A DNA stretch of 64,000 nt from Shigella phage ESh17: sequence record ON528727; one strand, 5' to 3'. Positions 38,702 through 39,505 of this stretch are shown here, piece after piece. The notes beneath the pieces are model-generated. The model ran no database searches, had not been told where the DNA came from, and worked only from the letters and a program-made list of their open reading frames with translations. The position numbers and the translations under genes were made by a program. Position 1 is the first letter of the stretch; each line of letters starts with the position of its first letter.

Positions 38702-39156
38702 TGGAATTTAAAGACTTTTCAACGGGTCTTTATGTAGCAGCTAAGTTTTCAGAATTAACACTTGATGCGCTGGAAGAACTCCAGCGCTCTTTACGTGTTC
38801 CTAATCCAGTTCCTAGAGAAAAAATTCATTCGACCATATGTTATTCAAGAGTAAATGTTCCGTATGTTCCATCAAGCGGAAGTTTTGAAGTAGCTTCTTC
38901 TGGACATTTAGAAGTATGGAAAACACAAGATGGATCGACTCTTGTACTTGTGCTAGATTCTGAATATCTGCGCTGTCGACACATGTATGCGCGGGCACTA
39001 GGTGCTACACATGATTTTGATGATTACACACCGCATATAACATTGTCTTATAATGTTGGGCCCTTATCATTTAGCGGTGATGTACAAATTCCGGTCGTAT
39101 TAGATCGTGAATACAAAGAGCCTCTTAAACTCGATTGGGCAGATGATTTAAAATAA
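38701..39156 (+). CDS. 57B: gp57B = Acb1-type anti-CBASS 2H phosphoesterase, 151 aa
   Basis: two H-x-T/S motifs (HSTICY, HITLSY) typical of the 2H fold; position after 57A; T4 57B is the described Acb1. Confidence 0.75.
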
Positions 39157-39175
39157 TTTCACAAAGTTGTTTACA
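39145..39175 (+). repeat. 31-bp perfect direct repeat, copy 1 (stop context plus -35 GTTTAC)
   Basis: gatttaaaataatttcacaaagttgtttaca; identical copy at 39475-39505. Confidence 0.9.
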
Positions 39176-39198
39176 CGCTGATGAGGTAGTGATACTAT
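39169..39198 (+). promoter_or_regulatory. early promoter (GTTTAC -35, N18, TACTAT -10) enclosed in a stem-loop
   Basis: GTTTAC / TGATACTAT; inverted repeat gatgag...ctcatc around the -10. Confidence 0.6.
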
Positions 39199-39228
39199 TA
39201 TCTCATCAAAATTAATTAGGAAAATAAA

Positions 39229-39486
39229 ATGAAAACTTTCAAAGAGTTTGCTACAAAAACTACTATCACCGAATCTTCCCACGGTATGGAAGTAAAGCTT
39301 GGAATGGCTTTAGCTGAAGCTGAGCGTCTTTTCTCTCGTATTAAAGAACTTGCTGCTGCAGTCGATCCTTCATCTTTTAAAGGAGACCAAACTAAAGTTA
39401 AAGCGCTTTTAGCATTATGCTCTGATGCAGGCGAAATCGCTAAGAACGGTTCTAAGATGAAGAAACGATTAGAAGATTTAAAATAA
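39229..39486 (+). CDS. internal-protein-like head protein with capsid-targeting-sequence-like N-terminus, 85 aa (ipI position)
   Basis: begins MKTFKEFATKTTITE; position between 57B and the tRNA region. Confidence 0.6.
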   Translation: MKTFKEFATKTTITESSHGMEVKLGMALAEAERLFSRIKELAAAVDPSSFKGDQTKVKALLALCSDAGEIAKNGSKMKKRLEDLK

Positions 39487-39505
39487 TTTCACAAAGTTGT
39501 TTACA
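39475..39505 (+). repeat. 31-bp perfect direct repeat, copy 2
   Basis: identical to 39145-39175. Confidence 0.9.

Follow-up and report, generated by a model that had tools for sequence, protein, structure and literature searches.

In a 64,000-nucleotide (nt) stretch of the genome of Shigella phage ESh17 (ON528727; the whole stretch is hereafter the window), the interval between genes 57B and tRNA.4 holds a single internal-protein (IP) gene, Ip5, bracketed by a perfect direct repeat. We consider it very probable that this interval is a variable IP slot, whose genes are exchanged by recombination between promoter cassettes, and that the window represents its one-gene state. The repeat-bracketed Ip5 arrangement is real, is already known (it is attributed to Repoila et al. 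1994) and is common in sequenced phages. In the mechanism that we propose, conserved blocks of the cassettes would supply homology to the phage's own recombination machinery, and a crossover between two cassettes, in one genome or in co-infecting relatives, would insert, delete or replace a whole IP gene. After such a crossover, each gene would keep a working promoter and ribosome site. The perfect repeat of 31 base pairs (bp) would be the left block of two such cassettes.

The direct repeat belongs to two promoter cassettes

The 31-mer GATTTAAAATAATTTCACAAAGTTGTTTACA is present in exactly two copies in the window, starting 330 nt apart, as the original prediction had described. No third copy was found across the 64 kb with up to three mismatches allowed, and none of 100 dinucleotide shuffles matched it. 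Each copy covers the stop codon of the upstream gene (TAA 39154-39156 for 57B; TAA 39484-39486 for the 85-amino-acid (aa) open reading frame (ORF) of Ip5) and the -35 of an early-promoter-like site, again as predicted. GTTTACA forms the 3' end of both copies, and TGnTACTAT lies 17 nt further downstream. The likeness exceeds the 31-mer: positions 39141-39234 and 39471-39562 are identical at 75 of 94 aligned positions, with one 2-nt insertion or deletion, and resemble each other through the ATGAAA of the downstream gene, inclusive.

39145-39175, + strand: perfect 31-nt direct repeat, copy 1; includes the final codons, DLK, and stop of 57B
39475-39505, + strand: perfect 31-nt direct repeat, copy 2; includes the final codons, DLK, and stop of Ip5
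39141..39234, + strand: promoter cassette 1 (57B > Ip5); 75/94 identical to cassette 2; aligned with 38 other cassettes
39471..39562, + strand: promoter cassette 2 (Ip5 > tRNA.4); 75/94 identical to cassette 1
39170..39198, + strand: early-promoter-like site 1; -35 TTTACA 39170-39175, 17-nt spacer, -10 TACTAT 39193-39198, TG 39190-39191
39500..39528, + strand: early-promoter-like site 2; -35 TTTACA 39500-39505, 17-nt spacer, -10 TACTAT 39523-39528, TG before it

A cassette consists, in order, of a stop codon, an upstream element, the -35, a hairpin over the -10, a leader, a Shine-Dalgarno site and ATGAAA. Both cassettes of the window fit the T4 early-promoter motif (GTTTAC(A/T) at -35, a 17-nt spacer and TAnnAT at -10), and a homologous site in Yersinia phage fPS-65 is annotated as a 'predicted early promoter'. 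We infer that the cassettes are active as promoters.

We aligned 39 cassettes, namely the two of the window and those at 37 boundaries of 13 relatives (L001-L013). Three conserved blocks emerged, with variable segments between them (the hairpin arms around the -10, and the leader). The first block, (AT)TTCACAAAGTTGTTTACA, comprises the upstream element with the -35 (ATTTCACAAAGTTGTTTACA); the second, GTGATACTATTA, is the extended -10; and the third, AATAAAATGAAA(AC), holds the ribosome site and the start, the Shine-Dalgarno site being accompanied by ATGAAAAC and leader codons. Cassettes are about 70-95 nt long in the Tequatrovirus and Jiaodavirus genomes compared. The exact 31-mer occurs at 707 places in 472 phage records, which corresponds to about 235 records with two copies. 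This is close to the 268 phage records in which tblastn finds Ip5 at an identity of at least 80%.

Could the repeat result from promoter selection only? Adjacent genes would each need a strong early promoter, their upstream sequences would converge, and the repeat would have no role in gene movement. The pattern TTTCACAAA-N3-GTTTAC, which makes up 18 of the 31 nt, recurs at 43907 and 58788, two early-promoter-like sites that are not IP boundaries; thus, part of the repeat identity is promoter consensus. The -35 and -10 likewise match other early-promoter-like sites of the window. The rest of the 31-mer, its 5' part GATTTAAAATAA, encodes DLK-stop for 57B and Ip5 alike, and the repeat is 12 nt longer than the left cassette block because the two genes share this ending. 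That the identity reaches 12 nt into coding sequence and stop, which a promoter does not obviously need, makes promoter selection highly improbable as the whole explanation. It would also leave unexplained the variation in gene content between genomes with 94-99% identical flanks, the segregation of cassette halves with neighbouring genes, and the chimeric cassettes with broken hairpins, all described below.

The content of the slot varies on an almost constant backbone

The 57B-tRNA.4 interval was taken from 15 other genomes, giving 16 with the window. Their slots hold the following genes, in order:

Ip5: window, Shfl2
IPI: T4
Ip6: RB18
Ip8-like: Klebsiella phage Mineola
Ip5, IPI: RB14
Ip5, Ip6: T6
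Ip5, Ip7: T2
IPI, Ip6: teqdroes, ECML-134
Ip9, Ip7: N2
IPI, Ip7: LF82-1
Ip5, Ip9, Ip7: RB32
Ip5, IPI, Ip8-like: T4_ev240
Ip5, Ip9, Ip7, Ip8: RB15
IPx, Ip9, Ip5, Ip6: TH40

The original prediction had staked itself on gene-content variation between relatives, and such variation is plain. Between one and four IP genes occupy the slot; they come from at least seven alleles whose mature parts are mutually unrelated, and the number, order and identity of the genes are all polymorphic. Since the flanks of most compared genomes are 94-99% identical to the window, the backbone stays nearly constant while slot content changes. Tequatrovirus genomes keep the genes in one relative order (Ip5, IPI, Ip9, then Ip7/Ip6/Ip8), which fits differential deletion and replacement in an array no less well than it fits repeated, independent insertions.

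A cassette was present at both boundaries of the window and at all 37 other boundaries of the 13 relatives, as well as in RB15. In TH40, a Gaprivervirus (L016, 846-2275), the first three of the genes IPx, Ip9, Ip5 and Ip6 are only 8 nt apart, leaving two boundaries without a cassette.

Direct repeats around inserts are typical of transposition, and T4-like genomes carry homing endonucleases (e.g. segB in the T4 tRNA region), so the repeat might instead be a duplicated target site, the trace of a mobile element (a transposon or a homing-endonuclease cassette) that brought Ip5. The 330-nt unit, though, consists of the 85-aa IP ORF only, with no transposase or endonuclease gene, and on this ground we rejected such an origin. 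Moreover, this cassette also borders all the other IP alleles and occurs in T4, a phage without Ip5, and an imperfect likeness over about 94 nt that includes promoter parts is unlike a short exact target duplication. A mobile element is hardly conceivable as the source.

Cassette halves stay with their genes, and chimeras mark crossovers

Left-arm type tracks the upstream gene (57B in 11 of 13 cases, Ip5 in 8/8, IPI in 5/5 and Ip6/Ip7/Ip9 in 11/11), and the right arm tracks the downstream gene in all 39; leader type nearly always does likewise. Six of the 39 cassettes are chimeric, with arms that are not complementary: Ip5>IPI of RB14 and T4_ev240, Ip5>Ip7 of T2, and Ip9>Ip7 of RB32, N2 and RB15. 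These fold at -1.9 to -10.1 kcal/mol, compared with -11.6 to -17.4 kcal/mol for nearly all cassettes with matching arms. The six are recombinants that crossed over in the -10 core, which means that crossovers happen inside cassettes. A second crossover site is indicated by RB18 (57B>Ip6) and N2 (57B>Ip9), in which the 57B tail is joined to an IPI/Ip5-type spacer; these joints place a crossover in the upstream/-35 block, within the sequence that forms the 31-mer of the window.

RB32 illustrates how the window arrangement could arise. Its Ip5>Ip9 cassette equals the Ip5>tRNA.4 cassette of the window through ATGAAA, apart from two single-base differences, and its record describes Ip9 and Ip7 as 'flanked by 43 bp direct repeat'. 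A single crossover in this repeat would turn the RB32 arrangement into that of the window. T4 is known to delete and amplify segments via recombination at short homologies (Srikant et al. 2022; PMC9391042).

Segregating halves and chimeras together are the footprint of recombination between promoter elements, the process by which, according to the original prediction, the IP gene was inserted or duplicated with its promoter. The cassette and a 57B-like tail are indeed duplicated; the Ip5 gene is not (it resembles neither neighbour). The shuffling mechanism of T4-type hyperplastic regions that the prediction invoked is supported, and is already published rather than new.

Several points count against exchange between cassettes as a full account. 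An IP boundary can do without a cassette, as the abutting IP genes of TH40 demonstrate. Part of the repeat is a general promoter consensus, and identity alone is therefore no proof of recent exchange. Insertion of Ip5 and deletion of neighbouring IP genes from a longer array would leave the same sequence. Finally, promoter activity and the packaging, cleavage and injection of Ip5 are read from the sequence.

A variant of the exchange model would have Ip5 arrive on a small circle with one cassette and integrate via a single crossover, duplicating the cassette and the 57B tail; in that case, Ip5 would owe its DLK-stop to 57B. We regard this as possible, though doubtful. 57B ends in (E/D)DLK-stop also in the distant relatives LF82-1, Mineola and TH40, whereas a paralogue of Ip5 at the other IP locus aligns to ...RLE and then reads KYISGASEK, not DLK, so the break in homology coincides with the left edge of the repeat. 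The route was proposed for promoter-early stem-loops (PeSLs), mini-circles of which were detected in RB49 (PMC2839356). The two C-termini suggest, from three codons, that Ip5 acquired its final codons from the tail of 57B on being placed at this site. Three codons could, however, agree by chance or convergence, and T-even IP cassettes have not been seen as circles. TH40 Ip5 also has EDLK-stop although it does not lie beside 57B; thus, any capture of the 57B tail would be old.

A hairpin over the -10 is maintained by compensatory change

39179..39208, + strand: hairpin 1; arms 39179-39191 and 39196-39208, loop ATAC in the -10 region; RNA fold -14.8 kcal/mol, z = -4.7
39505..39536, + strand: hairpin 2; outer arms ATAGGGT 39505-39511 / ACCCTAT 39530-39536, inner 39514-39517 with 39524-39527; -14.2 kcal/mol, z = -3.1

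In the folds of both window cassettes, the -10 lies in or beside the loop (z scores are relative to shuffles); with DNA parameters the energies are weaker (-5.4 and -5.5 for cassettes 1 and 2). Among 35 distinct cassette cores, we found at least eight different arm sequences, each still complementary to its partner: GATGAGGTA / TACCTCATC, ATAGGGTA / TACCCTAT, AGGATGAT / ATCATCCT, ATAGGACTA / TAGTCCTAT, GGGATAA / TTATCCC and others. A covariation count by column in a single register was dropped, because the distance of the arms from the -10 differs by cassette type; instead, halves were folded with their own partners and after re-pairing. Own partners gave a mean of -12.95 kcal/mol, compared with -9.8 ± 0.44 kcal/mol for re-paired halves, and none of 10,000 permutations reached the observed value. 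This was also true for 15 non-redundant cores. Because natural halves fold better than re-paired ones, hairpin pairing is under selection, and since the arms vary in sequence, the selected feature is a nucleic-acid structure rather than a protein-binding sequence. Transcripts from the cassette's own promoter would start inside the right arm and lack the hairpin, so that only read-through RNA or single-stranded DNA would form it.

The inverted repeat might be an intrinsic terminator of the upstream gene, making the cassette a terminator-promoter unit like the PeSLs of RB49, whose stem-loops terminate efficiently (PMC2839356). The stability of both hairpins and the covariation that keeps their pairing would agree with such a role. 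No T-run follows either stem, however (AAAATTAATT, AACTACTGAGG), and a terminator scan of both cassettes found no terminator; termination was rejected as the main function for these reasons. The stems are also AT-rich and enclose the -10 instead of following the promoter, and Arbiol 2010 calls the T-even IP elements analogues of PeSLs, not homologues, with weaker AT-rich stems (PMC2839356). Overall, we judge a terminator unlikely.

Cassettes of the same design occur elsewhere

Two further early-promoter-like sites of the window (44257-44285 and 44646-44674) have a stop codon abutting the -35 (TAAGTTTACA). Around the -10, they carry compensated inverted repeats, AGGCTCAT/ATGAGCCT and GGGAGTA/TACTCCC, with folds of -15.7 and -14.0 kcal/mol. 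Thus, the same cassette design also bounds small ORFs outside the IP slot. At the second IP locus (48213-48686), which follows lysozyme gene e (47624-48118), the window has a single IP of 157 aa (MKTYQEFITE..., phrog_3155). This gene is preceded at about 48119-48150 by AAAGTTGTTTACT...TGATAGTAT, which has the AAAGTTGTTTAC block in common with the Ip5 cassettes.

In Jiaodavirus (Mineola, L012 2001-2094, and about 100 Klebsiella/Raoultella records), a megablast search with 57B-tRNA.3 matches only the cassette upstream of tRNA.4 and the first tRNA.4 codons, at 88-92%, indicating that the cassette is better conserved than the surrounding genes. In phage slur03 (L015, ~1783-1840), the cassette that follows a paralogue of Ip5 has an inverted repeat, CCTCCAAG...CTTGGAGG, that by eye stretches across the -10 and takes in the Shine-Dalgarno site of the next gene, denV. 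Judging from this sequence, read-through RNA could mask the denV ribosome site, and promoter-initiated RNA would not.

Ip5 resembles a cleaved and packaged internal protein

39229..39486, + strand: Ip5 gene, 85 aa; phrog_3499 1.2e-49; 100% identical to RB15 Ip5
39229-39273, + strand: predicted capsid-targeting leader of Ip5, MKTFKEFATKTTITE; start of the 85-aa ORF
39274-39483, + strand: predicted mature Ip5, 70 aa, isoelectric point (pI) 9.2; the ORF after the predicted ITE cut

The ORF matches PHROG 3499, 'internal head protein', over its full length (1.2e-49). It is annotated as Ip5 in RB32, RB14 and PP01, and as Ip5 or internal head protein in relatives. It is also 100% identical to Ip5 of phage RB15 (CAA84462), which comes from a 1448-bp GenBank record (Z35082) titled 'DNA for Ip5, Ip9, Ip7, Ip8'. 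The mature part differs from the homologue in Gaprivervirus TH40 at 44 of 210 nt and at 7 of 70 residues (ratio of nonsynonymous to synonymous substitution rates, dN/dS, 0.05), and Ip5 is a real gene under purifying selection.

All 26 IP ORFs translated from relatives start with the leader motif MKT[FY][KQ]EF; the TH40 and slur03 homologues are looser. The capsid-targeting-like start that the original prediction had pointed out is evident in Ip5, which begins MKTFKEF with aromatic residues at positions 4 and 7 and has ITE at residues 13-15, followed by SSHG. In the leader of IPIII, residues 4 and 7 direct packaging, and the prohead protease gp21 removes the leader (PMC9026906). ITE fits the gp21 site (L/I)-x-E. 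The leader of T4 IPI is MKTFKEFTSTTTPVSTITE, and the structure of its mature form IPI* (PDB 2JUB; residues 20-95) begins right after ITE, which confirms that IPI is cut there. Cleavage of Ip5 is predicted after E15, leaving 70 residues of 7.5 kDa with pI 9.2, much like IPI* (8.0 kDa, pI 9.0) in size and charge. In TH40 Ip5, a different and shorter leader of 10 residues, MKTYQTFINE, is joined to the same mature start, SSHGMEV, with INE just before SSHG; the swap of leaders on one mature start indicates that leaders move as modules.

Ip5 would thus be packaged into the head via its leader, cut by gp21 after ...ITE, and injected. By analogy with Ip1, Ip2 and Ip3, which block GmrSD-type restriction enzymes, it may block a first-line host defence. 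Ip2 and Ip3 are, like Ip1, inhibitors of distinct GmrSD type IV restriction enzymes, whereas ten other ip genes showed no new interaction and no inhibition of the GmrSD variants tested (Silas et al. 2025; PMC12373910). IP genes are in this sense injected counter-defence factors, and because Ip1, Ip2 and Ip3 each neutralise a different GmrSD-type enzyme, slot content helps set host range.

For Ip5, Pfam returned only a sub-threshold match to DUF7890 (E = 0.076), the best hit of a PDB sequence search had E = 0.76, and literature searches on 'Ip5' and on the virion proteomics of phages that carry it yielded nothing usable. A single-sequence AlphaFold model is a two-helix hairpin (predicted local distance difference test, pLDDT, 79). 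Foldseek matched it in the PDB to generic helical hairpins (the LSD1 tower, designed helical proteins), none at E ≤ 0.001, and the predicted fold gives no functional clue. Neither the sequence nor the fold of Ip5 matched a solved inhibitor.

The Ip5 paralogue (47.6% identical, 93 aa) lies directly after lysozyme e, at the other IP locus, in slur03 (L015, 1501-1782), LF82-1 and about 228 records; tblastn found it in 228 records beyond those holding Ip5. Its occurrence there indicates that the Ip5 family occupies both IP loci in different phages. In slur03, the start of the paralogue overlaps the stop of e, and its C-terminus is ...RLEKYISGASEK, not ...RLEDLK.

Relation to known exchange systems

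Promoter/inverted-repeat elements of T-even IP loci were reportedly described by Repoila, Tetart, Bouet and Krisch in 1994 (EMBO J 13:4181). Passages in Arbiol 2010 (PMC2839356) and Comeau 2014 (PMC4122927) credit Repoila 1994 both with the idea of shuffling and with the promoter and stem-loop elements of the two IP loci. To the extent that those passages and the RB15 record (Z35082) portray the elements, the window agrees with them: the locus is 57B-tRNA.4, Ip5 is 100% identical, the leader is conserved, and each IP ORF is flanked on both sides by an early promoter with an overlapping inverted repeat. Aligned with the window, the cassettes of RB15 correspond base for base, and nothing essential differs, the window slot being minimal with one gene where that of RB15 has four. 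All features of the T-even IP-locus cassette are therefore found here, namely the early-promoter motif, the overlapping inverted repeat, its presence on both sides of the ORF, and IP polymorphism.

As a clean, minimal example of the mechanism proposed in 1994, the window has confirmatory value. Our comparison adds the linkage of each cassette half to its neighbouring gene. It also adds where crossovers fall: in the upstream/-35 block, in the -10 core and possibly in the Shine-Dalgarno/leader block. Promoter cassettes of this kind would explain the quick re-assortment of IP genes in T4-like phages.

PeSLs (RB49/phi1, PST/T4 and nt-1/KVP40; PMC2839356, PMC4122927) are likewise small regulatory cassettes that bound non-essential genes of hyperplastic regions and offer homology for modular shuffling. 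They consist, however, of sigma-70-like promoters and GC-rich (GGGG...CCCC) terminator stem-loops, a combination absent from the cassettes of the window, which have a T4-early promoter and an AT-rich stem straddling the -10 without a T-run. IPI of T4, whose mature form IPI* inhibits GmrSD (PDB 2JUB), shares with Ip5 the slot, the upstream cassette and the leader type MKTFKEF...ITE. In contrast, the mature parts have no sequence similarity, and Ip5 is predicted to be a two-helix hairpin.

Integron arrays also consist of ordered, exchangeable single-gene units bounded by hairpin-folding recombination sites whose structure is conserved while their sequence varies. One could accordingly picture the IP slot as an integrase-free, integron-like array, in which the -10 hairpins would be start sites of exchange for a structure-specific enzyme (e.g. 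endonuclease VII), possibly via circles, and the DLK-stop of Ip5 would be an integration scar. We think this quite unlikely. Unlike an integron, the IP slot has no integrase, and each IP unit carries its own promoter; crossovers lie in the conserved blocks, as in a homology-driven process, and chimeric cassettes with broken hairpins persist.

Flanking genes and the tRNA region

The window comes from a Tequatrovirus (a T4-like phage). Its gene order is gene 1 (dNMP kinase), 57A, 57B, the 85-aa ORF, tRNA.4, tRNA.3, further small ORFs and eleven tRNA genes. All genes from gene 1 to the tRNA cluster are on the + strand, in the order of phage T4 read in reverse. The ipI position that had been assigned to the 85-aa ORF agrees with this order (57B - ORF - tRNA.4). 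Megablast matched 783 phage records, nearly all of them T4-like phages of enterobacteria; the best matches were Shigella phage Shfl2 (98.5%) and Escherichia phage BP32 (98.6%), both Tequatroviruses with the same layout.

38701..39156, + strand: gene 57B (Acb1 family, anti-CBASS), 151-aa ORF; Pfam PF23474 Acb1 2.6e-60; annotated 57B in T4, RB32 and RB14
39557..39742, + strand: tRNA.4, 61-aa predicted membrane protein, conserved right border of the IP slot; phrog_1692; annotated tRNA.4 in T4, RB32 and RB14

Many records label 57B 'RNA ligase' or hypothetical despite its Pfam match to Acb1, an anti-CBASS phosphodiesterase. Given this match, an anti-CBASS gene directly adjoins the slot for injected anti-restriction proteins.

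Of the eleven genes in the tRNA cluster (41503-42524), those for Tyr, Asn and His have no counterpart in the eight-gene cluster of T4, and there is no room for the homing endonuclease gene segB that splits the T4 cluster. Between tRNA.3 and tRNA.2, an insertion of about 455 nt (40146-40631) contains a 126-aa ORF (40228-40608; phrog_4301, without functional annotation). It is bracketed by a 31-nt direct repeat of 87% identity (40146-40176 and 40601-40631), which is a duplication of the start of tRNA.2. As its junctions have no promoter cassette, they are of a type unlike those of the IP slot. The insertion is present in two of 641 matching phage records, PaulHMueller and vB_Eco_QOTSP.

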